In this document: piece after piece, positions 21,754-62,735 of the stretch
Layout: the number at the start of each line of letters is the position of its first letter
Numbering within the stretch: the stretch's first letter is position 1
Assembly (NCBI GenBank): GCA_963575745.1
Contig: CAUYUJ010000165.1
Location: 1 to 64,000 of the forward strand
Direction: 5' to 3'
DNA: 64,000 nt
Source of the DNA: Prorocentrum cordatum
Lineage: Eukaryota
The notes under the pieces: model-generated
What the model was told of the DNA's origin: nothing
What the model saw: the letters and a program-made list of their open reading frames with translations, nothing else
The model's database searches: none
Made by a program: the position numbers and the translations under genes

Positions 21754-21984
21754 TTGGGCGCCCGAGTTGTTCGGGGTAACTCGGGTCTGGGGTAAGTCGG
21801 GTTTGGATTCCCGAAAAAAGAACCCGAATTAGCCCTGACCCGAGTTACCCCTGATGATGTGGGGCTCTGGACGCCCGAATTATCCGGGGTAACTCGGATC
21901 CGGGGCAACCCGGGTTCGGACTCCCGAAAAACGAACCCGAATTAGCCCTGACCCGAGCTAACCCTGATGATTCGGGGCTCTGAG
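21754..21984. mobile_element. Dimeric hairpin retroposon-like element, copy 1 (125-bp TSD)
   Basis: TTGGGCGCCCGAG...GGGGCTCTGAG with two ~112-bp palindromic units; flanks 21629-21753 and 21985-22109 are direct repeats. Confidence 0.8.
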
Positions 21985-22960: not shown

Positions 22961-23972
22961 GAGGAGAGGAGGGCGAGGAGGGCGAAGAGGAGGAGGAGGA
23001 GTAGGAGGAGGAGGAGGAGGAGGAGGAGGGGAGGGCAGGAGGAGGAGAGGGAGGGAGGAGGAGGTGGAGGAGAGGAGGAGGAGGAGAGGAGGAGGAGGAG
23101 GGGAGGAGAAGGAGGAGAGGGAGGAGGAGGAGGAGGAGAGGAGGAGGAGGAGGAGGAGGAGGGGAGGAGGAGGAGGAGGAGGAGGAGGAGGAGGAGGAGG
23201 AGGGCGGGGGGAAGGAGGAGGGGAGGAGGAGGAGGAGGAGGAGGAGGAGGAGGAGGAGGATGAGGAGGAGTGAGGAGGAGGAGAGGAGGAGAGATGAGGA
23301 GGAGAGGAGGAAGGAGGAGGAGGAGAGAAGGAGGAGGAGGAGGACGGAGGAGGAGGAGGAGGCGGAGGAGGAGGCGGGGGAGGAGGAGGGGGGAGGAGGA
23401 GGAGGAGGAGGAGCGAGGAGGAGGAGAAGGAGGAGGAGGAGGAGGAGGTAGAGAGGAGGAGAGGAGGATGAGAAAGGAGGATGAGAGGAGGAGGAGGAGG
23501 AGGCAGGAGGGGAGGAGGAGGAGGAGGAGGAGGAGGAGGGGAGGAGGAGGAGGAGGATGGCTGGCGAGGAGGAGGAGAGGAGGAGGAGGAGGAGAAGAGG
23601 TGGAGAGGAGAGAGGAGGATGAGAGGAGAGAGATGAGGAGGAGGAGGAGGAGGAGGAGGAGGAGGAGGAGGAGGAGGAGGAGGAGGAGAGGAGGAGGAGG
23701 AGGAGGTGGAGGCGGAGGCGGAGGCGGAGGAAGAGGAGGAGGAGGAGGAGGAGGAGGAGGAGGAGGAGGAGGAGGAGGAGGAGGAGGAGGAGGAGGAGGA
23801 GGAGGAGAGAGGAGGAGAGAGAGGAGGAGGGAGGAGGAGGAGGAGGAGGAGGAGGAGGAGGAGAAGGAGGAGGAGGAGAGGAGGAGGAGGAGGAGGAGGA
23901 GGAGGGGGAGGAGGAGGAGGAGGAGGAGGAGGAGGAGGAGGGGAAGGAGGAAGAGGAGGAGGAGGAGGAGGA
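22961..23972. repeat. ~1-kb imperfect (GGA)n microsatellite at the LINE 3' flank
   Basis: Seen directly; many more GGA/CCT tracts occur throughout the window. Confidence 0.95.
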
Positions 23973-24033
23973 GGCACCCGACCGAGAAAGGTTCGACCTA
24001 ATTCACAGCTGCATGCACTCATGGAGGGGGGGA

Positions 24034-27000
24034 CTAGCCGAGATCGGGATCCTCATCCTCGAACTCCGGTCCCGCCCACTTCCTCACCACCACTTGCCTC
24101 GCTTTCGCCGCAGCGGCTGAAAGGCCGTAGAGCGCCAAGCCGCGGTTCCAGTCCGCAGCCAACGGCCCTACAAGCGCCGTCTGCTCGGCGGAGGGGCCCG
24201 TCTGCTTCACGGGCCCCTGCAAGCCCTGGGACCAGGCAGAGAAAAAGGGCCGCCAATGCTCCCTGACCTCCAGGCTCGGGGCACCGACGTACGCCAACGT
24301 GAACCCTTTCGGGTTACGATGGCCGGGAAAAACTCCAGCACGAAACCTGTTCAGGTAGCACCCCCGACTCGTCGACGACGCGACGGGACGACACACAGAC
24401 CGAATATTCCCTCGCTTCGTGCTGGAATGGGCCATGGCCCCACATCTGACGCACATCAGCATCGAGTCATGAAAAGTCTCACGATCAGACTCGTGAACGT
24501 CGGCCTGCTCAAGCAGGTGCTCCAATTGCCTCCAAGCTCCGGGCGATGGCTCTCCGGTGGGTCCACCACCAAGGCCCTCGGAGGAAGAGGAGGGGGCAGC
24601 ACACGCAGCAGCAGCGGAGGCTCCCCCCCGAGCGGAGGCAGGCAGAGGAGGTAAACCTGGGACCGCGTCCAGGATGACATGTCCAAGCCACTCCAGGCCG
24701 ACGTGGTCTTGCAATGCCAGGTCCCGGCATTCAAACTGTTGCGTTGCACAAAAAATGCCTAATCTCTTGACTAGCTCACAACAGCCTAGCACTAGAAGAC
24801 GATCCTCAGCAGAAACGCGGAACCGTTCGGCCCCTTCTTTAGCCAGGCGGTCCGCCTCAGAATTGCCAAAGCGCTGGAGGTCCGTGATCCTACCTTCCCC
24901 CACGTCGGTCATCGACGTATGGGCAGGGATTTTGACCACGGCCATCCCCTCAAGGCGGTCCCCGATTTCGGCCCACCAGTGGGCCCTGGCCGACGTGACC
25001 CCCGCAGCCCCCCGGAGATTACGGAGGCAGCCGACTGTGGCAGCACAGTCGATAAACAGGGAAACGTTCTGGCCAATGACCGCACGGCGCGAAAGCATCA
25101 ACACAGCGAAATCCTCGCCGTCGCGGGCCAGCTGCCCTGGCGCCTCGGCGAGAGGGACCACTCCGAACAGGGCGGCGATCGTCCTCCCATCCTTATCGAG
25201 GACAACGACAGCCCACCCAGCCGTTTTTAAGCCGGGCATGCTTCCCTCGAAACCGGAACCGTCCGTAAAAACATTGGCCCCATCCGGGATCTTCACCCAG
25301 GCCGTGGGGTCGGGGAGCATGCACCTGCTAAAAAGTTCGCGGGCTTCTCCACTGAGATGGCCAACATTGCGAGCAGCCTCGGCGACGATGGGATCCAGGT
25401 TCTCGCGGCGCCAGCTGGCGAAGGCACAACACTGGAACCTTCGATGATACAAGGTCCCCAGGCCCTCCCCGCACAGCTGACACTTATTGTCCGCTTCAGG
25501 GCAATGGCCGGCAATTCTGCGTTGGGACCAATAAGCGTTGGCCAAAGTGGCCGACAAGGCGGCCTTGTGCCCCTTGGTCCAGCACGCCGAGTTTTTCCGA
25601 GACAACAGTTGATGAAGCGGGGCCCAATTGACCCCTCCGCTCCACTCACAAAAATCATGTTGCTTAAGTTGTTCCTCGCGCTCGACGGTGCGCCGCACAG
25701 CACTGCGCGCAAGCAGGGTGGGAAATTTGGGGGAGAAGCGCTCCACCGACCAGGACCTGCCGAGATCATCAATCAAAGACAGCGTCTCCAAATCAAACGC
25801 CCAACGGATCCTGGCCAGGAGGAGGAAGAGGGCAGCCACGGGTTGTCGGACCTGGCCCCAGGGAGCCTTCTTCTGCCGGACCGCCTGGGCATCGTGCACA
25901 CAGGAAGCCAGCACAGCCTGGGATATGGAACGATTCCATAAAACCCCAACAAATTCTTTCACAGCCGAACAGACCACCACCACAAGAGGATCCCGAATCC
26001 AGAGCCCCGGGGACGAGAGGAACCGGAAGCCCAACGAGGTCCCCGGAAGGAGAGGGCCCCAGGAGCGCGCCGCTTGGACCCTCAGCTTGTGGAGGCTGGT
26101 CGGGGGGATCCCTAAAATATGGGATCCCCAAGTGGCCTTAGCGAGTGGCCCTACGCGGAAAACTCTGCTATGATTTTCACTCTGGCCGAGCTGGCGCAGG
26201 GCGACGCCTGTCGAGGCGGCGGCGGTTAGGCGACTGGCCTGCGTGGCTACTCTGCGGACGCTGCCGTCGTTCGAATCACCGCCAAGGTCTCGGCGCGAGC
26301 GGACAAGCTTGTCCTCTCCTATCTTCCAACGCGGGTCCCGCATCAACTGCGGCAAGAGGCTGTGGTCGGACAGCATGAACCGGGTCTTGCCCCAATTGAT
26401 CGGCAGCTTGCGCGCTCCAAGCTCCGAGGTAACAATGTCGAAGCTCTGGATCGTGCTGTTGATGGTCGTGGCGGGCCCGCCGATGGTGCGCGTCGTCAGG
26501 TCATCCACCACGTTGAGGGCACGACAAGGGCGAGTCTCCGACGCAATGCGCCTCAGCAACGTCAGCATCAACAATTTCGCCACTCCAGTCGCCGCGCTGC
26601 AGCCGGCCATAATCGTTCCATTGGGGTGGCTGAGGCGACTGGTGCCTCCAGTCCACCGCGCCCTGCGCGGAGCCCTGTACAAGCAGCACAGGGCCTTCAG
26701 GAGAGCGCCGTCGAAGGAGAAGTGTTCGGCCGCTTGGCGCAACTCCTGGTGGCTGACGTTCTCATAAAACTTCCGGGTGTCATAAAACACGGTCATAGCC
26801 GTAAGTCCGTGACGACGGGCGTGACAAGTCAACATATTATGAAGATGCGCTGCTTTGTCACAGCTGGTTGCAGCGTCCTTCCCCCAGAAAAAGCTGGAAT
26901 CCACCGAGGCTTCCCAATCCTTAACATAGGCACGCCTGACTCTGCTCCAAACCCTGGCCCAGAAACATAGCAGGCCGATGGGCCGCGTTCCACCCTCCGC

Positions 27001-29304
27001 CTTGGGCAAGAACACGTTGATCGTGATCCACATGTGCTCGCAGGATGGGGCCTTCTCCCGCTCGGTGAGGATCTGGGCGAGTCGAGACACGAAGGCGCCG
27101 TCGAGGAAGGAGACCAAGCGCATGTGGAAGTTGTCCCAGCCCAGGCCAGTAGCAGGGCCGAATGACCTGCATGCGTCCATCACCTGCTGCTCGGTGACGG
27201 GGCCAAGCGTCCAGTCATACTGCCAGTCTTTCGGATGGACCTCTTCAGCTCGATCGGTGGAGACCCACAAGGCCCCCCATTCCTCGAGGACTGCGTCAAT
27301 CGCCGCCGATCCAACCAGCCCGTGCGCAGCAGTGCCACGCCTGGGGCAGGCCTCCCCCAGTCTCTTTGGCCGACAAATGGCATGGGCAAGCTTGCCTGAT
27401 CCAGCGACGACCGACTGGCCGCACTCCCGCCAGGCCTGGCTCCGTGCCTTGGCATCGCGGCGGCGTCGCTCCTCGACCTCATCAGAGAGCACCGTGCGGA
27501 ACCACGATGCCAATGGCCCACCCTTCTGGGCTGCAACAATCCACTTGTCGACTTGCGGTTCCTTGAGCAACTGGGAATCGGAGAGCGGCACCGGTAGCTC
27601 CATGCAGCGCATCTGCTGGATGATCCTGTCGCGATGGATGGCGCGACCCGCCTTGGAACCAGACGGAGCAGCTGACGAAACACAGAGGCCGTCCCGCAGC
27701 CTCAGCATCGACAGCCAGGTCCTGGTGTCCGTCTCGTCATGGCGCTCCAGGGCGCCTCTGCTGAGGTCCGCGAGCTTCTTCTTCTTCTTCATGGCGACGC
27801 CCTTGCAACGGCCAGGGTACAACCTCCTGTCCTGCTCCGGGATCTCGAAGAGGTCCACGAGGTACAGCTCGGCTGCCGTGAACCATCTGGCCGCCTCCTC
27901 CTCGACGTTCCGGATGGGCCTATCCAGCATCCACTCGGCACGAACCGCGGGGCGGGGCGGACAGATCTCCTCGGCCTTGGCTCGCGCCTTTGCCTTGGCT
28001 TCCTGATCCGCCAGAGGGAAGGCCTTCGGGGGGGGCTCCACCCAGACGAAGGGCTCCTCGTGGATTCCGTCCAAAGTGAGCGTCACGTAACAGTGAGGCG
28101 AAATCGGCGCGTCGACCCTCGCCTCCACCGACATGGGAAACGCATCTAAGCTCTGGGAGCCGATGAAATAATCGTAGTCATGGCCATTGCACGTCGGCAC
28201 TCCGGGCGCGTACGCCGTGGCCGAGGCCAGATCGAGCCAACCCGTGGCCATGACCTCCTCGGGCTCCATGTTCCAACCCCCTCCCAGCAGGAAAGGGAAC
28301 CGCTGGGCACCGAGGAAAGTGCCGAGGAACTCGAGGATATCCAGGTTCTCGCCCTTGGGCCCCAGCGAGTCGACGCAGTGCACGGAGCCGACGATCAGCC
28401 ACGAACAGGGCCCCAGCGTCAACAGCCTGAGCAGAACTCGATGCCTGAACCTTTCCGGCACCGGGTCCAGCAGGGCGGCTCCCACGCCGAGTGCCGTGGA
28501 GAGGCCAACCCCTGACGAGAGAGCTCTGGCCGCTTCGCCCGTCCTCACCGAAGACCCCAGCGCCAGGCGCCTAGAGCAACTTCTCGTCCACTGATGGGCC
28601 CCTTGCTCGCTAGTGGCCGCCAGTGCCGTCTCCTGGATGCAGAGGGCCTGCGGCATACCAACGTGCTTCTCTATCCACGGCATGGTGGCTCTCGCACGCA
28701 TCCACGCGTTGGCATTCAGAGTCCCCACAGAGAACGAGGAAAGGCCATCCGGAGCCACAACAGGAAAGCCCTCCTCGAGGGACACCCTGACCGGCGCATC
28801 GAGACCAACGTGCATCGACGATTTGCTCCCGCACCGGGCGGGCCCCGCCCCAGCACTCGGCGAGGCCGCGCCAGTTGCGGGAACCTCCTCGGCTGCTGCG
28901 GGAGCCATCACTGCGCGAACCTGAGCGGCAGCCCGACGATCGCCCAGTGCGCCAGCCGTAGCTGCATGTGGCGACCTCTGCCGCTCCTCCAGCGATTCCC
29001 CCCCACGGGGCCCTCCCTGGGGCTGCGAGGGCGGAGCAGGGGAGCTCCCGCCCGAGTCTCCCAGGTGACGCGCCCGTGGAGGGGTCTCCACTTTCTCGGG
29101 AGCGGTGAGTGCACCTGTCGACGCGGAAGTCGGCCCACACGCACTCGAACTCACTGCACCTGTGCCATTGCCTGCCTCGCGCGCCCTGCGCTCCAGGTCA
29201 GACGAGAAACACCTCGACGGCCGCAGGCCGGGCACTGCAAAGCCCAGCTCTGGCCAATCGAGGTCGATCAGGTTGTCGCTCCAATAGGCGTCGAGGTTGG
29301 CCAT
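24034..29304 (-). CDS. LINE ORF2 polyprotein (~1756 aa): APE endonuclease, reverse transcriptase, CCHC Zn knuckle, RNase H, C-terminal Cys motif
   Basis: APE motifs GTLNANAW, LCIQET, LLGGGWN (GDWN variant), DYDYFI, SPH. RT motifs GPATGLGWD, FLPKAEGGTRPIGLL, FYDTRKFYENV, GTIMAGCS, NVVDDL. Zn knuckle CQLC..HRRFQC. RNase H VFTDGS..GED..FIDC..KIPAH..GNSEADRLAKEGA. The start is taken as the first ATG after ORF1; the frame stays open upstream to 30903. Confidence 0.93.
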   Translation of the reverse strand: MANLDAYWSDNLIDLDWPELGFAVPGLRPSRCFSSDLERRAREAGNGTGAVSSSACGPTSASTGALTAPEKVETPPRARHLGDSGGSSPAPPSQPQGGPRGGESLEERQRSPHAATAGALGDRRAAAQVRAVMAPAAAEEVPATGAASPSAGAGPARCGSKSSMHVGLDAPVRVSLEEGFPVVAPDGLSSFSVGTLNANAWMRARATMPWIEKHVGMPQALCIQETALAATSEQGAHQWTRSCSRRLALGSSVRTGEAARALSSGVGLSTALGVGAALLDPVPERFRHRVLLRLLTLGPCSWLIVGSVHCVDSLGPKGENLDILEFLGTFLGAQRFPFLLGGGWNMEPEEVMATGWLDLASATAYAPGVPTCNGHDYDYFIGSQSLDAFPMSVEARVDAPISPHCYVTLTLDGIHEEPFVWVEPPPKAFPLADQEAKAKARAKAEEICPPRPAVRAEWMLDRPIRNVEEEAARWFTAAELYLVDLFEIPEQDRRLYPGRCKGVAMKKKKKLADLSRGALERHDETDTRTWLSMLRLRDGLCVSSAAPSGSKAGRAIHRDRIIQQMRCMELPVPLSDSQLLKEPQVDKWIVAAQKGGPLASWFRTVLSDEVEERRRRDAKARSQAWRECGQSVVAGSGKLAHAICRPKRLGEACPRRGTAAHGLVGSAAIDAVLEEWGALWVSTDRAEEVHPKDWQYDWTLGPVTEQQVMDACRSFGPATGLGWDNFHMRLVSFLDGAFVSRLAQILTEREKAPSCEHMWITINVFLPKAEGGTRPIGLLCFWARVWSRVRRAYVKDWEASVDSSFFWGKDAATSCDKAAHLHNMLTCHARRHGLTAMTVFYDTRKFYENVSHQELRQAAEHFSFDGALLKALCCLYRAPRRARWTGGTSRLSHPNGTIMAGCSAATGVAKLLMLTLLRRIASETRPCRALNVVDDLTTRTIGGPATTINSTIQSFDIVTSELGARKLPINWGKTRFMLSDHSLLPQLMRDPRWKIGEDKLVRSRRDLGGDSNDGSVRRVATQASRLTAAASTGVALRQLGQSENHSRVFRVGPLAKATWGSHILGIPPTSLHKLRVQAARSWGPLLPGTSLGFRFLSSPGLWIRDPLVVVVCSAVKEFVGVLWNRSISQAVLASCVHDAQAVRQKKAPWGQVRQPVAALFLLLARIRWAFDLETLSLIDDLGRSWSVERFSPKFPTLLARSAVRRTVEREEQLKQHDFCEWSGGVNWAPLHQLLSRKNSACWTKGHKAALSATLANAYWSQRRIAGHCPEADNKCQLCGEGLGTLYHRRFQCCAFASWRRENLDPIVAEAARNVGHLSGEARELFSRCMLPDPTAWVKIPDGANVFTDGSGFEGSMPGLKTAGWAVVVLDKDGRTIAALFGVVPLAEAPGQLARDGEDFAVLMLSRRAVIGQNVSLFIDCAATVGCLRNLRGAAGVTSARAHWWAEIGDRLEGMAVVKIPAHTSMTDVGEGRITDLQRFGNSEADRLAKEGAERFRVSAEDRLLVLGCCELVKRLGIFCATQQFECRDLALQDHVGLEWLGHVILDAVPGLPPLPASARGGASAAAACAAPSSSSEGLGGGPTGEPSPGAWRQLEHLLEQADVHESDRETFHDSMLMCVRCGAMAHSSTKRGNIRSVCRPVASSTSRGCYLNRFRAGVFPGHRNPKGFTLAYVGAPSLEVREHWRPFFSAWSQGLQGPVKQTGPSAEQTALVGPLAADWNRGLALYGLSAAAAKARQVVVRKWAGPEFEDEDPDLG

Positions 29305-29335
29305 GCCCACCCCGCTGGCGACCGACGCGGGCAGG

Positions 29336-30418
29336 TTACCCACGCCGCGCTCGTTTGACGCCCAGGCCGAGAGCGGCCGCGGCTGCCATGTACCTCCGCT
29401 TGGCTGCTGCCTGGTCGGCGGGCGCAGCGCTGCGGAGGTGCTCCGTGGCCTCCTGGAACTCCTTCTGCTTGGCCTCGATACCCTCGCCAAGGAGGAGCAT
29501 GTCGATGTCGTCTTCGTCGCCGTCGGCGGCTGGGACGCGCACGCCTCCCTCGCCAACGGCAGCGCCGCCTCCCGGGCCCCCAGGAACCGGCCCAGCAGCA
29601 GCAGCAGCAGGACGAGGAGGAGGCTGCTGCGCCGCAGCGGCTGCCGATGCCCCGCTCTGCAGCTTCTGGAGGACCGCCAGTGCCTCCCTGCCGGCCTCCG
29701 ACTCGATGACCGACGTGTCCAGGGCGGCCGACACAGCCCTGATCGGGTCCCCGAGTTCGTTGGCCTGGGCTTTGCAGAGGAAGTCCTCCGCGGCGGTGAG
29801 CTCCGCCCGAGCCCCAGCCAAGCTGGCAGCGACCTCATCGATCTGGACTTCGAGCTCGAGCTTCTGAAGCCGCAGAGCCTCCGCGCGGCTCTCCAACTTC
29901 GTGACCTTCGTCCGCAAGTGCTCCGCCTTCCATCGCGCCGAACGCGCTGTAGGCGGCTTGATGTCCGTAGCCTTCTTCTCGGCGGCCTCCACCGCGGTGA
30001 TGGCTGCCGCATCGACGCCCTGGTCGCGCAGGAACAGCAAGACTTCCTTGTAGGATGGTGCCCCTGTACCCGCGGCCCTCGGGGGCGGTGATTTGTCGGC
30101 CCAGGGCGGCTTGCTGCCCCCAGCCGAATCGGCCGAGCCTTTCCCGGAGAGCGCCGCCACCTGCGCCTGGAGCTCCTTGAGGGTCTTGGCGATCGACTGA
30201 TCGCCAGGGGGTCCCCTCGCCCCGCGCGGGCTGCGGGGCGCGGAGCCTTGGCCCACCGCAGCGGCAGCCTTCTTCGCGGCCTGCACCACCTTGGACGAGG
30301 CGTGGGCTCCGCATCCTCTGCACTTGAGCCGCGAAGCCCAATTGTCCCAGCAGCCGCACTTGCTGCACCCCCACAGGGGTGTTTTTGCGCCTGGCAAGAC
30401 ATCGGGCGGAGGCCCCAT
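29336..30418 (-). CDS. LINE ORF1 (~360 aa): RanBP2-type zinc finger plus coiled coil
   Basis: N-terminal WGCSKCGCWDNWASRLKCRGCG fits W-x-C-x2-C-x(3-4)-N-x6-C-x2-C. Heptad region KAEHLRTKVTKLESRAEALRLQKLELEVQIDEV. Lies directly upstream of ORF2. Confidence 0.88.
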   Translation of the reverse strand: MGPPPDVLPGAKTPLWGCSKCGCWDNWASRLKCRGCGAHASSKVVQAAKKAAAAVGQGSAPRSPRGARGPPGDQSIAKTLKELQAQVAALSGKGSADSAGGSKPPWADKSPPPRAAGTGAPSYKEVLLFLRDQGVDAAAITAVEAAEKKATDIKPPTARSARWKAEHLRTKVTKLESRAEALRLQKLELEVQIDEVAASLAGARAELTAAEDFLCKAQANELGDPIRAVSAALDTSVIESEAGREALAVLQKLQSGASAAAAAQQPPPRPAAAAAGPVPGGPGGGAAVGEGGVRVPAADGDEDDIDMLLLGEGIEAKQKEFQEATEHLRSAAPADQAAAKRRYMAAAAALGLGVKRARRG

Positions 30419-30523
30419 TCGCCGCTGGCTGCAGCGGCTGGGGCGAGCGTGAAAGAAACCCAAAGTGGCTCGCAAGCACGAGCCGCTCCGAAGTACGCGC
30501 TTGCAAGCTCAGCGCCACCAAGG

Positions 30524-30538
30524 CCTGAGCCAGAACGG
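30524..30538 (-). other. Relict spliced leader (SL nt 8-22)
   Basis: CCGTTCTGGCTCAGG matches CCATTTTGGCTCAAG at 12/15 and abuts the intact SL directly, the expected geometry for recycled leaders. Confidence 0.8.
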
Positions 30539-30560
30539 CTTGAGCCAAAATGGCTACGGA
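30539..30560 (-). other. Exact dinoflagellate spliced leader (DinoSL) at the LINE 5' end
   Basis: Reverse complement of cttgagccaaaatggctacgga is TCCGTAGCCATTTTGGCTCAAG, a 22/22 match to DCCGTAGCCATTTTGGCTCAAG. Confidence 0.97.
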
Positions 30561-32043
30561 AGGAGGAGGGGGAGGAGGAGGAAGAGGAGGAGGAGGAGGA
30601 GGAGGAGGAGAGGAGGCGCGAGAAGGAGGAGGAGGAGGAGGGCGAGGAGGAGGAGGAGGCGCGAGGAGGAGGAGGAGGAGGAGGATGAGGAGGGAGGAGG
30701 AGGAGGAGGAGGGGGAGGAGAGGAGGAGGAGGAGGAGGAGGGAGGAGGCCGAAGGAGGGAAGAGAAAGGAAGGCGAGGCCGCTCAGGGGGACGGCTCCCG
30801 CCGGGAGGGCGTGGCGCGGCCAGCCCCGCTGGCGGGGTCCGCGGCGGCTGCGGGACACCCCTTCCGGCCCAGTGTGCTGCACCGTGTGCGGTGAGCGTGC
30901 CACCGTCTCGAGGAGGGCGCCGGGCCTCGGCGGGCACCGCCGAGGTCAGGGAGCCGCGGGAGGAGGTCGGAGGCGTTCGCGAGGCTGGTGCAGCCGAGCA
31001 GTGCGTGGTCAAGCGGGTGCCCCAACGACAGTCTGGGCGGGAGGCGCGGCACTTGTTCGTGGGTCTCTTCGGCGGGGCCCCAGGCGAGCAGGCCCCAGCG
31101 AGGCCCCGAGGGTCCCGTGCATGGTGGGCATGAGCCAATTTGTTGGCCTCAGTGAGGAGCATGCCCGAGCCCTTGGCGGATCTGCTTCTTTGGAGGTCGA
31201 GGCCGACTCGGAAGGTGAGTTCTTCTACGTAGGGGGGGCCCTGTTGCGGGCCCTCGGGCTGGAGATAGAGCCCGCCTCGGGGCTGGCACCTTGCCCTTCG
31301 ACGGGCCCCCCTCTGGACTCTCTCTCTCTCTCTCTCTCGTTCTCCCTTCCTCTTCCCCTTCTGGGCGTCCAATCCTCTTCCTCCTCCTCCTCCTCCTCCT
31401 CCTCCTCCTGGTCCTCCTCCTCCTCCTCCTCCTCCACCGCCTCCTCGCGCCTCCTCCTCTCCCCTCCTCCCCCTCCTCCTCCCCTCTCTCCTCCTTCCCC
31501 TCGTTCCTCCTCGTCCCTCCATAACCTTCCCCGAGCTCCCCCCCCTCCTCCTCGCCCCTACTCTCACCTCCTCCTCCTCCTCATCCTCATCCTCCTCCTC
31601 CTCCTCCTCCTCCTCCTCCTCCTCCTCCTCCTCCGACTCCCCTCCTCCTTCCTCCTGTTTTGCTCCTCCTCCTCCTCCTTCCTCATCCTCCTCCTCCCCT
31701 CCTCCTTCCTGCTCCTCCTCCTGCTCCTCCTGCTCCTCCTCCCTCTCCTCCTCCTTCTCCTCCTCCTCCTCCGCCTCCTCCTCCTCCTCCTCCTCCTCCT
31801 CCTCCATCTCTTCCCCCGCCTCCCCCGCCCGGGTCTCCTCCCATTCCATCACAGTGTTCCCCCTGCCCTGCCCCCCCTCACTCCTCCCTCCTCCTGCGAC
31901 GAGCAGGTCCAGCAACCACGACGTCCAGCGTGAATGCGCCTTCTCCTTCCCCCCCCCCCTCGCAAAAGAACGAGAGGAGGCAAGGGGCGACCCAGGGGGA
32001 GGGGCGGAGGGATGGGGAGGAGGAAAGCCGGCGGCGGCCAGGC

Positions 32044-35120: not shown

Positions 35121-36612
35121 GGGTCGGCGAGGCTGCCGCGCCTGGCTCGAGCTCCTCCTCCTCCTCCTCCTCCTCCTCCTCCTCCTCCTCCTCCTCCTTC
35201 CTCCTCCTGCCTCCTCCTCCTCCTCCTCCTCCCCCTCCTCCTCCTCCTCCTCCTCCTCCTCCTCCTCCTCCTCCTCCTCCTCCTCCTCCTCCTCCTTGCG
35301 GCGGCCATGCCTGCCGAGACGATTCTCCACGGCCCAGACGCCCACGCCCGTGTGCTTCCTCGCGAGTGTCCCTGTCGATCTCGCGGGCGCCTGCTCCTGA
35401 GGACGCGCCGCAGCGGCGTGGGCCGCCTCGGGCACAGGCTCCGCCAGCACTCCCGGCGAGGCGTGTGCAGCCGCCGCCGACTGCCTCCCCGCGAACTTCG
35501 ACGTGCGGCGCTGCCACCGATGGCGAGCGCGCTGCCGCGCGCCAGCGTGCGCCGACGTGTCGAGGCGCGGGCTGAGGTGACCGCTGCGGCCCTGCCCGCG
35601 CCTGCGGACTGCCACTGCTCTGACGACCAGCCAGTCTGGTGGTGTGCTGCTGCTCCACCTTGCACGCCTCTGTCGGCGCCTGCGCCGCGGCCCTCGGGCC
35701 GGCAGCAGCCGCCGCGTGCGCTGCCGCTGCCAGCCGACGACCTTCGCTCCTCCTCCTCTCCTCCTCCTCCTCCTCTCCTCAGGAGAGGAGGAGGAGGAGG
35801 AGGAGGAGGAGGAGGAGGAGGAGGAGGAGGAGGAGGAGGAGGAGGAGGAGGAGGAGGAGGAGGAGGAGTGGACGGAGGAGGAGGAGGAGGAGGTCGGCGA
35901 GGCTGCCGCGCCTGGCTCGAGCCTGCGGCGGCCAGGCCTGCCGAGACGACTCGCCACGGCCCAGGACGCGCCCACGCCCGTGTGCTTCCTCGTGGGTGTC
36001 CCTGTCGATCTCGCGGGCGCTTGCTCCTGATTTGGGCGCCCGAGTTATCCGGGGTAACTCGGGTCCGGGGTAACTCGGGTTTGGATGTTCGAAAAAGGAA
36101 CCCGAGTTAGCCCGGACCCGAATTACCCCTGATGACTCGGGGCTCTGGACGCCCGAATTATCCGGGGTAACTCGGGTCCGGGGTAAGTCGGGTTCGGATT
36201 CCCGAAAAACGAACCCGAGTTAGCCCTGACCCGAGTTACCCCTGATGATTCGGGGCTCTGAGTGATGACGCGCCGCAGCGGCGTGGGCCGCCTCGGGCAC
36301 AGGAGGCTCCGCCAGCACTCCCGGCGAGGCGCGTGCCGCCGCCGCCGACGACCTCCCCGCGAACTTCGGCGTGCGGTGCTGCCACCGATGACGAGCGCGC
36401 TGCCGCGCGCCAGCGTGCGCCGATGTGTCGAGGCGCGGGCTGAGGTGACCGCTGCGGCCCTGCCCGCGCCTGCGGACTGCCACTGCTCTGACGACCAGCC
36501 AGTCTGGTGGTGTGCTGCTGCTCCGCCTGGCACGCCTCTGTCGGCGCCTGCGCCGCGGCCCTCGGGCCGGCAGCAGCCGCCGCGTGCGCTGCCGCTGCCA
36601 GCCGACGACCTT
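35121..36612. repeat. Local tandem duplication (35121-35745 vs 35892-36612)
   Basis: Colinear near-identical segments; copy 1 gained a CCT tract and copy 2 gained the hairpin element. Confidence 0.8.
36032..36262. mobile_element. Dimeric hairpin element, copy 2 (TGAT TSD)
   Basis: Same termini as copy 1; the empty site is visible in the paralogous segment at ~35391-35410 (ctgctcctgaggacgcg). Confidence 0.8.
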
Positions 36613-43845: not shown

Positions 43846-46800
43846 GGAACGGAACGGAACGGAAGCCGGCGCAAGGCTCCGCGAGGGAGCTGCCGGGAGG
43901 ACCGAGGCCTGCTCACATCTTAATGTAATCGTCCTTCAGTTGGTCCCACATTTCTAACATCGCAACCTGTGTCCAATCGTCGTGGCCAAGAGTGGTCAGC
44001 ACATGTTGTTTGATATCGTCAGCCCATCGGGTCTTAGGGCGCCCTGGGCGTCGCCAGGCTGGTGTGCGTAGGTCCAGCTGTGGAGCCCAGTTCTGGATTT
44101 GAGCCGGCCATTCTGGTGCTTCCATAAAAACTTCCCGCGCCCATTCCCATTTTTTCCGCCTGTAGATCGTGGCCCCATAATCCACATCAGATCCGTGCAT
44201 CCGTCGTACTGCCTCGTGGGTGGCACGTTTAATCCATTCCGGCCAAGGCTCCAGTAAAGGGTCAGCCTCGATGACGTCGGTGTCCAGGTCGGGGGGCGGA
44301 GCGGCGTCGGTGTTTGAGTCAGGCAATAGCCGTCGTCTCGGCACACGCACGATCATGCGGAGCATCCGGCGCTGGATCTTGTTCAATGTATGTTGCATAT
44401 CACGTGTAAGTGTCCAGCTTTCGTTCCCGTATAGCACAGTCGGTGTAATCGTGCCACTGAACAGCCGGAGCCGGTCACGTAAAGAATATGGTTTGTCTGT
44501 TAGTTCCCCCTTCAGCATGTGGAATTTCTCCCATGCAGCGGCGATCCTGTTGTCGAGTTCGGCTTTGTGCTGTCCTGCAACTTGTATCCTTTTTTCCCAA
44601 ATATTTAGTGAAGCGGTAGGGAGGTATTACTTCGATTACCATGCCGTTCGCATGTACATGTGCTGGAGGTCGCCCCCTGCGAGTGAATCCGTGGCCGTTG
44701 TGTAATATCTTCGTCTTGCTGGGATGCAAGTGTAAGCCGATGTGTGACGCTTGTGTGCTGAGGTCGGATAGCATGCTCGTGATGTGATCAGAAGACGATG
44801 ATACAAGAAGTATGTCATCAGCGAAACGTAGATTGGTGAGTTTGGAGCGTGCTTGATGACCAAATGAAATGCCAATGTTTTGTTTGTCCCATAGGAATGT
44901 CAGCGAACGCATCAGATGTTCTGTGACGCTGTTGAAGAGAAGAGAGCTGAGAGGGTCTCCCTGTTTCACGCCTCGCTGTATATAGAAATGCTTGCTCACA
45001 TGGTCAGTGCGTATTGCTCCTGTCTGTTTGGAATACAGCTTGTGTAAGAGATCTATGTATGGTCGTTGGACCCCCTGGACTGCAAGGGCCGCCCAAATGC
45101 TCTCATGCGTGACGCTACCAAACGCCTTTTTGAAATCAATTGTCGCCACCCACAAAGGTAATTGCCACTCGTCAGCAGTTCCTTGCAGTATAGATAACGT
45201 GAAAAGGTGGTCGGCGGTGCTCCGACCCGGGCGAAAGTCAGCTTGGTCGGCGCTCTGGTTTGCGTCGAGGACATCGTGCAGCCTGTTATACAGGAGTCGG
45301 GAAAACAACTTGTATAATAGCGGAATTGTGGCAATCGGTCTGCAATTTTCCGGCAGCCGTGGATCCCCACTTTTGAACAGAACTTTGATGTCAGTGTGTG
45401 ACCACGCTGCTGGTATAGTAGCGCCCGGCTGTAATATGGCGTTAAAGAGTGCCAGTACACTGGATCGTAGAGCTTGTCCTCCTGCCTTGAGCATCTCGGC
45501 GCTGATGCCGTTGGTGTCGGGTGCCTTCTTGTTTTTGAGCTGTCGGAGTGCTTCGCGTAGTTCACTGTCGGCGACTGGTGGGATGCACTCGGCCCCGGGG
45601 GCCTCTCGGTCGGAGTGGGCGTGTCTATCCTTCGCGTCGTCCCGATAGAGCTGGCTGTAAAATTCTGCGAATACGTCGGCAATGGATTGTCTGTTGTGTA
45701 TCGGGTTCCCACCGCTGTCGTTCACGCTGACAATACGGTCCTTCTCTTTCAGCTGCTTGTACGCGCCGATGCGCTTCAAGTTATGATATTGAGAAGGTAT
45801 GGTGTCGATGTTTGCTCTCTGGGTTGCTCTTCTGATCGCCCGCAGTTCCCGTCGGATCCGGTTGGATACCAGTGACCGTGATTTGGTATCGCTTGCTGGT
45901 GTATCCCGTCGTCGGTTCAAGAGCTGCGTAGCAACGGCGTTGTATGATGCCTTCGCTTGCGTGTCCGCGGGTGGTTGGTGAGCCGCCAAAGTATCCAGAG
46001 GAGACTCTTCGATCGCTTTACACGTGAGTTGGATATGTTCTGTGGCGTGTAATACGTCGAACTTGTCAGCCAGTGTCTGCTCGTAGCTGGAAATATCAGT
46101 CGGTGGCCAAGCGAGTGGCGGTGCTCTCCGTTTCCGGCCAGGCCGTTTCGACTGAGTTCTCGCGGTGTGTATTCCCGGTAGGTCGCTGCATATCGCCACG
46201 GCACGGTGGTCGGATCCCATGTCGATTGCACGAGTCGTCCCACAATCCCGGATAGTGCGCCAAAGCCGTCGGTTACATAATATGTGGTCGATTTGTCTTG
46301 GGATCTTGTTTGTTCCCATAAACGTATGCCGCTGATGAGGTTGCTTTTTTGAAGAAAGTATTGGCCAACACAAGTTTGTTGGTCGCTGCCCAATTCTTTA
46401 GCCACTGTCCCCTGGGGTTCATCCCTGGAGCTCCCCACAATCCGATTGATCGCCTGTCGTCGTCGTCGGTCCGTTCCCCTACCACGGCGTTGCAGTCAGT
46501 GCACAGTACGAAATACATCCGCTGTATGTTTGCCTCGTCGCAGATACAGCCCAACACATCGTATGTATCCTGTACGTGTTTGTCTCCGTATCCAGTGTGG
46601 GGGAAGTACGCCGTAGCCACACGTATTTTGAAATAGTTTCGAGCTATGCCGACATAGGCAATGCGCTCGTTGATAGGTTTGAAACATGATATTTGTGACA
46701 CCCACCGTTTGTGCACCATGACTGCAACTCCCCGATGTGGCTTAGTATATCCAGCTCCTAGAAGAGCGTGTCCGCCAGGGATTGTCCAGAATTCTTCTTT

Positions 46801-47480
46801 GATATCCCTCTTTGTTTCGTTAATGGTAATGACGTCCCAGTGAAGATTCTGCAAGTCGCCCAGAAGTTCCACCACTCTGTCGTCGGTGGCCAGTCCTCTG
46901 GTATTCAAGTGGATCGCTATAAGCTTGTCTGGCAGTGGTTGATCGGCAGCGGCCTGCTGAGGGACAGTGACTGCATCTGGCCCGTGTGAAATTCCCAATG
47001 GCTCTCCCGAGGATTCTCGATGGAGCGTCGTGGGGGTGAAACTGGTGAAACTGACAATTGTGAAACAGCATTGAGCTTGGAGATGAACACTGGGTCGGAG
47101 CTGGAATCGGGCGTCGGAGTCGGTGCGACGCCGGGGTCGGAGGCCGGAGTCGAGGTCGGATGCCAGTGTCCCTGGTCGGAGCCGGAGCCGGAGGCCTGAG
47201 CGGCTGTCCACGCGACCTGCTCGTCGTCGCTGGCGTCGGTCTCTGTCCTGGGGCGACAAGTCTCCTGAGGGTCAGATGGGGCAAATCTCAAAGACAGGGG
47301 TGCGTCTCCAGGGGTGTTCGACAGTTTCCCCCTGCCGCCTCCTGCAGCACGGGCTGCTGGATGTGCCACTGTTGCATCTCCTGCTGAGCTCCTGTTCTCT
47401 CCATTTACGTCTGAAGCGAAATTCAAGGATCCGGCGTTGGAGGAAATGTGGTGGTCCTGATGTCGGGAATGGGAAACTGG
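43846..47480 (-). mobile_element. RTE-type non-LTR retrotransposon with (GTTCC)n tail and 77-bp TSD
   Basis: Single APE-RT reading path with an RTE-like C-terminus (LYGNESW, RRPGRPKTRWAD). 3' tail ggaac x3 at 43846-43860. Flanking direct repeats at 43769-43845 and 47481-47557. Confidence 0.93.
43913..47000 (-). pseudogene. RTE APE-RT ORF with two +1 frameshifts
   Basis: APE: HLNTRGL, VITINET, GVAVMV, TAYFPH, TDCNA, IDHIL, SDH. RT: RPIATIPLLYKLF, IDFKKAFGSV, GVKQGDPLS, RFADDI, KYLG. Frames shift at T6 runs 46345-46350 and 44590-44595. The start codon is uncertain. Confidence 0.88.
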
Positions 47481-53089: not shown

Positions 53090-54770
53090 TCCCAACCATC
53101 CTGTGGTGATGGGTCCTCGTTTTGAAGAGACAGCGCCCCGCGTTCCTCCTACCGCTGCCCCTTTCCCTCCTCCTCTCACTCGTTTTGAAGAGACAGCGCC
53201 CCGCGATCCTCCTCCTCCTCCTCCTCCTCATCCTCCTCCTCCTCCTTCTTCCTCCTCTCCTCCTTCTCGTCCTCCTCCCCCTCCTTGCCACCGCCCTCCG
53301 CACGCCCATTCCGGCACACCCCTCACACGGTTCGTGGCCCTATAGGAAGCTCCACCGAAGGCCCCAGTGGCCGCGTCCGCATGCGCCCTCCCCGCCCACC
53401 GCATGCGCATTTCGGCACACCCCTCACACGGTTCGTGGCCCCATCATAGGGAGCCCCACTGAAGGCCCCAGTGGCCGCGTCCGCATGCGCCCTCCCCGCC
53501 CACCGCATGCCCGTTTCGGCACACCCGTCACACGTTTCGTGGCCCCATATGGAGATCCACCGAAGGCCCCAGTGGCTGCGTGCGGATGCGTCCTCCCCGC
53601 CCTCCGCATGCCCATTTCGGCACACCCCTCACACGGTTCGTGGCCCCATCATAGGGAGCCCCACTGAAGGCCCCAGTGGCCGCGTCCGCATGCGCCCTCC
53701 CCGCCCACCGCATGCCCGTTTCGGCACACCCGTCACACGTTTCGTGGCCCCACATGGAGCTCCACCGAAGGCCCCAATGGCCGCGTCCGCATGCGTCCTC
53801 CCCACCCACTGCATGCCCATTTCGACACACCCCTGACACGATTTGTGGCTCCATAGAGAACTCCACCGAAGGCCCCAATGGCCGCGTCCGCATGCGCCCT
53901 CTCCGCCGCCCACCGCATGCCGATGTCGGCACACCCCTCACACGCTCCACCGAAGGCCCCAGTGGCCGCGTCCGCATGCGCCCTCCCCGCCCACCGCATG
54001 AGCATTTCGGCACACCCCTCACACGCTTCGTGGCCCCATAGGAAGCTCCACCGAAGGCCCCAGTGGCTGCGTCCGCATGCGTCCTCCCCGCCCACCGCAT
54101 GCCCGTTTCGGCACACCCCTCACACGAGCTGTGTCTCCACAGGGAGCCCCACTGAAGGCCCCAGTGGCCGCGTCCGCATGCGCCCTCCCCGCCCACCGCA
54201 TGCCCGTTTCGGCACACCCGTCACACGTTTCGTGGCCCCATATGGAGCTCCACCGAAGGCCCCAGTGGCCGCGTCCGCATGCGTCCTCCCCACCCACTGC
54301 ATGCCCATTTCGGCACACCCCTGACACGATTTGTGGCTTCATAGGGAGCTCCACCGAAGGCCCCAGTGGCCGCGTCCGCATGCGCCCTCCCTGCCGCCCA
54401 CCGCACGCCGATTTCGGCACACCCTCATAGGGAGCCCATCATAGGGAGCTCCAGCGAACGCCCCAGTGGCCGCGTCCGCATGCGCCCTTCTCGCCCAGCA
54501 TGCCCATTCCGGCACACCCCTCACACGCTTCGTGGCCCCATAGGGAGCTCCACCGAAGGCCACAATGACAAGGTCCACATGCGGCTCCCCGCCCGCCGCA
54601 CGTCTATGTCCGCACACCCTTCGCACGGTTCGTGGCCCGATAGGGAGCCCCAGTGAAGGCCCCAGAGACCGCGTGCGCAAACACCCTCCCCGCCGACCGC
54701 ACGTCCATTTCCTCTTCCCGCTGCGGGCCGCCCGTTGCATCCACGGCTCGTGGTCCCATAGGGAGGCCCG
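53090..54770. repeat. Satellite-bearing element: ~102-bp tandem units (about 14 copies)
   Basis: Unit cggcacacccctcacacggttcgtggccccatagggagctccaccgaaggccccagtggccgcgtccgcatgcg..., preceded by the leader cccaaccatcctgtggtgatgggtcctcgttttgaa. Confidence 0.9.
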
Positions 54771-57574: not shown

Positions 57575-57807
57575 TTGGGCGCCCGAGTTATCCGGGGTAA
57601 GTCGGGTCCGGGGTAACTCGGGTTTGGATCCCCGAACAACGAACCCGAGTTAGCCCTGACCCGAGATACCCCTGATGATTCGGGGCTCTGGACGCCCGAG
57701 TTATCCGGGGTATAAGTCGGGTCCGGGGCAAGTCGGGCTTGGAATCCCGGAAAACGAACCCGAGTTAGCCCTGACCCGAGGTACCCCTGATGATTCGGGG
57801 CTCTCAG
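57575..57807. mobile_element. Dimeric hairpin element, copy 3 (CAGG or CAGCAGG TSD)
   Basis: Same termini and internal dimer as copies 1 and 2. Confidence 0.8.
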
Positions 57808-61942: not shown

Positions 61943-62735
61943 CCCAACCATCCTATGGTATTGGGTCCTCGTTTTTTGAAACGACAGCGCCCCTGGTTCC
62001 TTCCTCCCTTCCCTTTCCCCCTCCGCACCACTCCTCCCCGCCCTTGCCTCTTCCCTCCGCATGTATCTGTTTCGACACACCCCTCACACGCTTCGTGGCC
62101 CCATCGGGAGTTTCACCGAAAACCCACATGCCAGCGTTCGCACGCGCCCACCGCACCCATTTTGGTACACCCCTCACACGTGTCGTGGCCCCACGGGGGG
62201 CTCCACCGACAGCCCCATCGGCTGCGTTCGCATGCGCCCACCGCGCAAATTTCGCCACACCCTCACACGCTTCGCGGCCCCAATAGGGAGCTCCCCCATA
62301 CGGAGCTCCACCGAAGGTCCACATGCTAGCGGTCGCATGCGCCCACCGCGCCCATTTGGCACACCCTCCCACGCTCCGCGGCCCCATGGGGAGCTCCACC
62401 GACGGCCATATTGGCTGCGTTCGCATGCGCCCACCGCGCCGATTTTGGCACATCCCGCGCACGCTGCGTGGCTCCATAGGGACCCCCACCGACGGAGCTC
62501 CACCTATTTGGCAACCCCGCAAACGCTTCGAAACCCAATAAGGCACTCCACCAGCGGCCCCAGTGGCTGCGTTCGCCTGCGCCCACCGCGCCCATTGTGG
62601 CACGCCCCATCGAACGTCTCGCGGCCCCATGAGCAGATCCACCGATGGCCCCAATGGCTGCGTTCGCACGCGGCCACAGCACCCATTTTGGCACACCCAT
62701 CACACGCTTCGTCGCCCCACAGGGAGTTCCTCCGA
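61943..62735. repeat. Diverged copy of the same satellite element (~90-bp units)
   Basis: Same leader (cccaaccatcctatggtattgggtcctcgttttttgaa) and a related unit. Confidence 0.8.

Follow-up and report, generated by a model that had tools for sequence, protein, structure and literature searches.

The 64,000-nucleotide stretch of the dinoflagellate Prorocentrum cordatum analysed here (contig CAUYUJ010000165.1, positions 1 to 64,000; hereafter the window) contains a long interspersed nuclear element (LINE) that opens with a complete copy of the dinoflagellate spliced leader (SL), DinoSL. A second, shortened and imperfect copy of the leader, or relict, follows directly behind the first. The likely explanation is that the RNA of this LINE is SL-trans-spliced in the same way as host messenger RNA (mRNA), and that it has been copied to its 5′ end by target-primed reverse transcription in at least two rounds. 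Two further LINEs from other sources start with the leader as well.

Retrocopies tagged with DinoSL are a familiar part of dinoflagellate genomes, where they make up about a fifth to a quarter of the genes (PMC6050394, PMC5585692). When a retrocopied gene is transcribed and trans-spliced again, the AG inside its genomic leader is reused as acceptor. This leaves a relict that starts at SL nucleotide 8 (PMC12014239, PMC6050394). The window element has the same arrangement at its 5′ end. All of its parts lie on the minus strand, so that the list below runs from its 5′ to its 3′ end.

30561..30748: 5′ flank, target DNA; (TCC)n as read along the element, (GGA)n on the plus strand; period 3, 62 copies, 188 bp (Tandem Repeats Finder, TRF).
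30560-30539, minus strand: DinoSL, 22 nt, exact, TCCGTAGCCATTTTGGCTCAAG; from sequence reading and motif search.
30538-30524, minus strand: relict leader, SL nucleotides 8-22, 12 of 15 matching, CCGTTCTGGCTCAGG; from sequence reading.
30523-30419, minus strand: 5′ untranslated region (UTR), 105 nt; position 30489 is covered by 8 contigs of run X1.
30418 (ATG) to 29336 (stop), minus strand: open reading frame (ORF) 1, 360 aa; RanBP2-like finger, long helix, C-terminal helical pair.
29304 (ATG) to 24034 (stop), minus strand: ORF2, 1756 aa, uninterrupted; in order APE, reverse transcriptase (RT), CCHC-like motif, RNase H and a Cys-rich C-terminal tail.
28045..28749, minus strand: APE (Exo_endo_phos-like) domain, approximate limits; PF03372 in collinear relatives, profile matches to APE1 and exonuclease III.
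28380-28378, minus strand: His309 codon CAC, where relatives have Tyr (SVY motif); from the relatives' alignment.
28278-28276, minus strand: Gly343 codon GGT at the position of the GDWN catalytic Asp; GAC (Asp) in other copies.
26368..27006, minus strand: RT core (Pfam RVT_1, 7.4e-11), NVVDD motif intact.
24835..25287, minus strand: RNase H-like region (VFTDGSG ... GNSEADRLAK), approximate limits; PF00075 in the aligned relatives P0037, P0111 and P0016.
23975..24033, minus strand: 3′ UTR, about 59 nt, with neither poly(A) nor an A-run.
22961..23974: 3′ flank, the same (TCC)n/(GGA)n microsatellite; 1014 bp, period 3, 341 copies (TRF).

ORF2 is in a different frame from ORF1 and is separated from it by a spacer of 31 nt. 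Judged from its sequence, the element is a full-length APE-type non-LTR (long terminal repeat) retrotransposon with RNase H, inserted in a (TCC)n microsatellite. Because the microsatellite is identical on both sides, the leader can be placed as the first base of the inserted DNA; any target-site duplication would be masked by these flanks. An earlier annotation, the sequence-only reading, had proposed this order of leader, relict, UTR of about 105 nt and two ORFs, and reading of the minus strand confirms it. The element end that it gave, 23973, is correct to within about 2 nt.

The leader is unlikely to be a chance match. The 21-nt DinoSL core has a single match in the window when up to 3 mismatches are allowed, and none of 100 shuffled windows gave any. 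For the relict, a match of 12 in 15 at a fixed place has a binomial chance of 1.2e-5 (p=0.25); anywhere on both strands, the SL 15-mer with up to 3 mismatches occurs on average 0.8 times per shuffled window (30 shuffles). Both marks of a DinoSL retrocopy are thus present: a genomic DinoSL directly 5′ of a transcribed unit, and a relict that begins at SL nucleotide 8. SL-relict contigs are also found among the loose ends at 30522 in the runs aligned to the element. The sequence-only reading had held that the element RNA was trans-spliced and fully copied in at least two cycles. The exact leader at the boundary between target and element, together with the nt-8 relict, bears this out.

In the proposed mechanism, the element RNA would receive the 22-nt leader at its 5′ end by trans-splicing. 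Target-primed reverse transcription would then copy the RNA to its 5′ end, or within one nucleotide of it (one short in a second LINE, L132, described below), so that the DNA copy would start with the 22 nt of the leader. In an earlier round, a leader-bearing parent would have been transcribed from upstream and trans-spliced at the internal AG (TCCGTAG|CC), leaving the 15-nt relict. Splicing at the terminal AG of the leader (nucleotides 21-22) could, in our view, exchange one leader for another and leave no scar. Since such events would be invisible, counts of relicts would underestimate the number of cycles, and more than one cycle may also have occurred in LINEs that lack a relict. In the window, the upstream (TCC)n forms a long pyrimidine tract directly before the AG of the leader. 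This is not general, as the upstream flank of L132 is rich in purines. Starting from read-through transcripts, trans-splicing may routinely produce and cap the 5′ ends of these LINEs.

Template switching onto SL RNA or another mRNA was considered as a source of the leader and rejected. The added piece has exactly the length of the exon, no intron is attached, and the relict starts at nucleotide 8.

A LINE beside a spliced leader has a precedent. SLACS, CZAR and CRE1/2 of trypanosomatids and NeSL-1 of nematodes insert in SL-RNA genes by means of a restriction-like endonuclease. The piece of leader next to them belongs to the target, and the remaining part of the SL gene lies 3′ of the element. 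The window element resembles them in being a LINE joined to an SL exon, and this adjacency is all that speaks for an element of their kind, or for a chance insertion beside an SL-RNA gene. The leader of the window element is, in contrast, part of the insert. A full exon stands 5′ of the element, both flanks consist of one microsatellite, and the leader is followed by CC instead of a GTAC donor, an intron of about 35 nt and a T-run. Sequence reading found no leader, SL-RNA intron remnant or half of an SL gene at the 3′ end, and a scan of the window against Rfam gave no family, with a chance-level match alone near the leader. True SL-RNA genes look different: leader, GTAC, about 35 nt and a T-run occur in 5 of the contexts fetched with the SL (L125, L126, L131 twice, and L137). 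The endonuclease is N-terminal and APE-like, and the C-terminal domain is RNase H-like, not restriction-like. Insertion into or beside an SL gene is therefore scarcely credible, and the two corresponding points of the sequence-only reading hold: no SL-RNA gene is the target, as the flanks of both ends attest, and the endonuclease is of APE type, as PF03372 in the relatives and the profile matches to APE1 and exonuclease III indicate.

ORF2 was compared with protein collections to establish its domains. ORF length by itself is no evidence for a gene in this window, because the DNA has 63% GC and long frames stand open in all six frames. A direct Pfam scan of ORF2 recovers RVT_1 alone (7.4e-11). 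A HMMER search with residues 169-1368 against 1.84 billion representative proteins gave 2688 relatives at E 1e-3 or better, 104 of them at 1e-30 or better. The full-length relatives are 24-34% identical to the window protein. In 17 of the 2688 relatives that were scanned, Pfam finds Exo_endo_phos in 10, RVT_1 in 11 and RNase_H in 3. The domains are collinear with window ORF2 over 1200 aa (N-terminal APE, central RT, RNase H towards the C-terminus), and both window ORFs are without interruption. The NVVDD of the window RT aligns with the catalytic motif of the relatives, and the nearest ESM Atlas clusters contain the same three Pfam families.

Profile searches of PDB point to the same domains. 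A search of PDB sequences with the family profile finds an R2 protein (5e-5), exonuclease III-type nucleases (9e-5 and 7.5e-4), human L1 ORF2p (1.2e-3) and, weakly, the RNase H 2lsn (E 0.03). A profile of the APE part by itself matches human APE1 at E 7e-4. Single-sequence phmmer of ORF2 against PDB gave no match, and a word search with ORF2 yielded 3 distant proteins only. The domain assignment of the sequence-only reading thus stands directly for RT, and by homology rather than by direct Pfam matches for APE and RNase H.

The N-terminal finger of ORF1, WGCSKCGCWDNWASRLKCRGC, is RanBP2-like and aligns with the finger of L132 ORF1 (E 0.001), which Pfam assigns to PF00641 (Zn_ribbon_RanBP) at 1.4e-7. 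A Pfam scan of ORF1 itself, with E up to 10, gave a chance-level DUF4140 and no DNA-methylase. An AlphaFold2 model from the single sequence is of low overall quality, with a mean predicted local distance difference test score (pLDDT) of 61.5; it contains a confidently modelled helix of 67 residues (155-221) at pLDDT 82-92 and a C-terminal helical pair. Word searches among proteins of 198-630 aa found no homologue of ORF1, and none of 594 pattern matches in metagenome_contigs was confirmed.

The window copy departs from its family at two conserved positions of the APE domain. The GDW/FN motif reads GGGWN in the window protein. Asp occupies this position in 9/9 relatives aligned at the column, as well as in L132, P0023 and P0034 (70% identical), the last two being the closest fragments. 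It pairs with the Asp of APE1 GDLN in the profile alignment. The variants 28276 A>G and 28277 C>T, which restore GAC (Asp), account for 118.6/127.2 of the depth in run X1 (4 contigs) and for all depth in runs X2, X3 and X5. Since most of the depth of the other copies reads Asp, Gly343 is confined to this locus or a small lineage. In the SVY motif, Tyr is conserved in 9/9 relatives and in P0034 and P0023, where the window copy has His309. Both the NVVDD motif of the RT and the RNase H motifs appear unaltered. With Gly343 and His309, the window copy lacks the intact set of APE catalytic residues; its endonuclease activity has probably been lost by the changes from Asp to Gly and Tyr to His, and for this reason it is probably not autonomous.

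The element belongs to a family that is multi-copy and of mixed age, and several of its copies keep the 5′ UTR. Run X1, which is independent of the assembly, contains 63% of the sampled words. Its contigs match the element at 80-100% in 225 cases: 22 at 99% or more, 51 at 95-99%, 64 at 90-95% and 88 below 90%. Contigs that are nearly identical tile much of ORF2 (the listed pieces span 23974-28766). At UTR position 30489, all 8 X1 contigs have T where the window has C, and variants extend as far as 30518, which is 6 nt short of the relict. No second copy was found inside the window.

These contigs also bear on the integrity of the assembly. A cDNA-derived or chimeric read could in principle have set an SL-bearing transcript between two microsatellites, and no independent contig is reported across 30556-30600, where the repeat was skipped in the contig alignment. 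The presence of sampled words and near-identical contigs in X1 argues against such an artefact, as does the recurrence of the order microsatellite, SL, LINE, microsatellite in one L132 contig from an unrelated DNA assembly. An artefact is accordingly very improbable.

Public collections were searched for other LINEs that begin with the leader. An exact scan for the SL 21-mer found 119 stretches in viral_contigs, from which 80 loci were fetched, and 20 stretches in 19 loci of genome_contigs. The loci numbered L001-L138 comprise 155 distinct SL contexts. In 137 of these an A stands before CCGTAG; in 10 the leader is followed by GT, and in 1 by a relict. All 138 SL-fetched loci were searched for relatives of the window LINE by tblastn with family proteins and with the family RT profile. 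L132 is the one related LINE among them, and the family's RT is absent from the 80 viral_contigs loci.

L132 continues as L151; together they make up a 9.1-kb contig that was assigned to a bacterial metagenome-assembled genome (MAG). It contains, in order:

1-116: (AGAGAGAC)n/(AG)n microsatellite.
117-137: 21-nt SL core.
Thereafter: a 93-nt UTR, ORF1 with a RanBP finger, about 3.6 kb, and ORF2.
3′ part: the ORF2 stop, a short UTR with AAAAAA, and (AG)n in 35 copies.

ORF2 of L132 carries Exo_endo_phos (3.2e-9) and RVT_1 (2.4e-11) and is 28-29% identical to window ORF2. The leader lacks SL nucleotide 1. The sequence after it, with 4/15 positions matching by eye, is not a relict. The stretch of about 3.6 kb between ORF1 and APE (L132:1343-5200) contains an ORF of 686 aa to which Pfam assigns no family, together with a peptide segment that is repeated internally. 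An additional ORF or an expansion could account for this stretch.

The third LINE, L135, is of another LINE family. It came to light when Pfam was run on 39 of 43 ORFs (120 aa or longer) that lie downstream of SLs in the other genome_contigs loci. It has the following order:

Upstream: unique flank.
Leader: 22-nt SL, first base A.
Thereafter: a UTR of about 97 nt, ORF1 of 286 aa, and ORF2, which is cut by the contig end.

Its ORF2 opens with Exo_endo_phos (7.1e-8), and longer relatives of this ORF2, 52% and 42% identical, carry RVT_1. L135 has no relict. In all, the leader opens three LINEs, which come from three sources and represent at least two families. The SL cap is therefore probably not a one-off. 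The sequence-only reading expects the leader at the 5′ end of other full-length copies; this expectation is answered in part by the independent L132 and L135, in which the same layout recurs, although they are not copies of the window family.

Two side observations come from the same survey. On the contigs L001-L080 (IMG/VR, mostly giant-virus MAG bins, for instance GVMAG-M-3300023179-82 and -3300023174-52), many SLs stand directly after recurring AT-rich motifs such as ATATAAATTTTA or TTTACTAAACCA. They resemble leaders encoded in the genome ahead of many genes on AT-rich, virus-binned contigs, and could reflect mimicry by dinoflagellate giant viruses, or host DNA that was mis-binned. At L127:7970-8045, an isolated leader lies between two copies of one 19-nt sequence, ttttgcttgcaggcgtgag, an arrangement that resembles a duplication on either side of a leader insertion.

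Encoded leaders raise another explanation for the LINEs. The leader may have been captured once and then kept as a fixed part of the 5′ end, with transcription from an internal promoter starting at SL nucleotide 1 and no trans-splicing at all. The AT-rich motifs before DinoSL on many giant-virus-bin contigs suggest that encoded leaders exist, and the leaders of all three LINEs are perfect. Yet the first base differs among the three, being T in the window and A in L135 and absent from L132, as expected from independent acquisitions of a leader with a variable first base. Elements whose proteins are only 28% identical would retain a flawless 21-22 nt through common descent only under strong selection, and the nt-8 relict is a specific scar of trans-splicing into a genomic leader. 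Inheritance of a captured leader is thus improbable.

A closer competitor accepts trans-splicing and gives it no role in the spread of the family. The family would spread without a leader, from an internal promoter, and SL-led copies would be occasional dead-end retrocopies comparable to processed pseudogenes. The two substituted APE positions of the window copy agree with this, as does the small number of SL-led LINEs, three in all, two of which were found through the SL. Related LINEs with A-rich tails, L139 and L140, have no detectable SL in their visible part. The relict is difficult to reconcile with a dead end, however, since it means that an SL-led parent was transcribed, spliced and retrotransposed again. 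Intact leaders occur in three LINEs of two different families, and neither window ORF is interrupted, with collinearity to relatives extending over 1200 aa. On balance this explanation is unlikely, while deserving to be kept in mind.

Several points weigh against repeated trans-splicing and full-length copying as a regular way of life for these LINEs. The relict has 3/15 mismatches and the leader 0/22, a contrast with a Fisher p of about 0.06 by our own calculation. A long interval may thus separate the two rounds, or the relict may have been inherited within the UTR; the contrast also hints at a parent that was already old at the time it produced the window copy. The window locus itself, given its APE residues, is probably not an autonomous engine. 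SL-led LINEs amount to 2/19 distinct SL contexts in genome_contigs, and because L132 and L135 were found through the SL itself, they show recurrence and not frequency. L139 and L140 have poly(A)-like tails and no SL in the visible part, though their contigs begin inside or very near the element start. Finally, Gonzalez-Pech et al. (10.1101/783902) report for two Symbiodinium species no overlap between the functions enriched in DinoSL-tagged genes and in RT genes, and describe the LINEs as old.

Searches for further members of the family added little at the 5′ end. The A4 family alignment found 12 loci in metagenome_contigs, none of which contains an SL (up to 4/21 mismatches) or a relict (up to 2/15). 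In viral_contigs, the A3 family alignment gave 6 pattern matches, of which 0 were confirmed. L139:6874-6960 and L140:6080-6210, from one metagenome project, have a common 3′ UTR that ends in 9-10 A and is followed by differing flanks. The window element has no such tail.

The microsatellites around the elements were examined as a possible sign of target preference. The window element and L132 each lie inside a single microsatellite motif, and the 5′ flank of L135 is unique. The window contains dozens of GGA/TCC arrays, which sum to about 7.6 kb of period-3 rows, or about 13% of its non-element DNA. Because GGA/TCC is so common, the setting of the window element alone is weak evidence. Among non-LINE SL-retrocopies, a microsatellite stands directly 5′ of the leader in L120:2-59 (GT)n, L123:1-52 (TCA)n and L134:1-55 (GACA)n. 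These are 3/10 of the evaluable cases; with L132, the count is 4/12 contexts that are not SL genes and have at least 20 nt upstream. It may be inflated, as short contigs tend to break at repeats. A common integration signature of LINEs and SL-tagged retrogenes is accordingly a lead, not a result.

A broader proposal combines these observations. Several promoterless dinoflagellate LINE families would ride on read-through of unidirectional gene arrays, would be cut out and capped by SL trans-splicing, would integrate preferentially at microsatellites, and would make the SL-tagged retrogenes of the host. The proposal as a whole is tentative, and we regard it as doubtful in this complete form. Parts of it go back to the sequence-only reading, in which excision from read-through transcripts without an internal promoter, and recycling of host mRNA by the RT of the element, are candidate functions. 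If LINE machinery makes SL retrogenes, this would explain why 3/10 non-LINE SL-retrocopies adjoin microsatellites. In Song et al. (2017), DinoSL-tagged genes show enrichment for 'RNA-dependent DNA replication', and the mediating RT is stated to be unknown (PMC5585692). Song et al. (2018) favour Ty1/copia, an LTR element, as the responsible RT (PMC6050394). Veglia et al. (2023) propose LINE-mediated integration for viral genes that carry relict leaders (PMC10235124).

The window element can be compared with several known systems. DinoSL-tagged retrogenes (Slamovits & Keeling 2008, Song et al. 2017; via PMC6050394, PMC12014239, PMC5585692) likewise have a leader or relict directly 5′ of the UTR, a relict start at nucleotide 8 and multiple rounds. 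Unlike these host genes, the window element is an autonomous-type LINE that encodes its own APE-RT machinery; the consulted portion of Song et al. gives a Gene Ontology term and no element anatomy. The full-text literature searched, which leaves subscription journals outside, contains no explicit description of a LINE that starts with a spliced leader, in dinoflagellates or elsewhere.

Dinoflagellate LINEs have been described from Symbiodinium. De Mendoza et al. (2018) report LINEs with APE, RT and RNase H and without poly(A) (PMC5890265), a paper in which 'spliced leader' and 'DinoSL' have 0 occurrences. SymbioLINE-Dnmt and its relatives have Exo_endo_phos, RVT_1 and RNase_H in ORF2 and lack poly(A), as the window element does, and they are described as having conserved UTRs (PMC5890265). 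They differ in ORF1, where the window element has a RanBP2-like zinc finger and SymbioLINE-Dnmt a DNMT.

Other LINEs define their 5′ ends by self-cleavage. R2 and RTE use ribozymes like that of hepatitis delta virus (HDV) to free the 5′ end. L1Tc releases its 5′ end from a co-transcript with an HDV-like ribozyme (PMC3383444). If the proposed mechanism holds, RNA processing would similarly excise a promoter-poor element from a host transcript and set an exact 5′ end. In contrast to ribozyme LINEs, the processing would be done by host trans-splicing, which would also supply a cap together with the 22-nt leader, and the DNA copy would then inherit this leader; no ribozyme was found, no search being aimed at one. 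Host trans-splicing would then be added to the mechanisms known to set the 5′ ends of retrotransposons that lack a promoter. The existence of SL-led LINEs indicates that LINE RNAs enter trans-splicing, that LINE-type machinery copies leader RNA to its 5′ end, and that such copies are used again.

Insertion into microsatellites also has a parallel. Among the R1-clade LINEs of insects there are APE-type elements specific for microsatellites. The window element and L132 resemble them in being flanked by one motif, and both are counted here as lacking poly(A), though L132 has A6. Target specificity is, by contrast with the R1-clade LINEs, putative, given the share of GGA/TCC in the window and the unique 5′ flank of L135.

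The remainder of the window contains other repeated elements. A second retroelement lies at 43913-47271 on the minus strand, in DNA of lower GC. It is spread over at least 3 frames, with RVT_1 at 6.4e-32 in the ORF 44478-46397, and no leader is recognisable upstream of it. Tandem units of about 101 nt and about 193 nt (53291-54711 and 62070-62504) include a leader-like stretch, for example CCGCACCCATTTTGGCACACC, which matches the SL at 15/21 positions. These arrays have no SL-RNA gene structure and no Rfam match. A unit of about 228 bp occurs three times, at 21755-21982, 36033-36260 and 57576-57804, each time as two repeats of 113-115 nt (TGGACGCCCGAATTATCCGGGGTAAC...). This unit could represent a small mobile element or one of foldback type.

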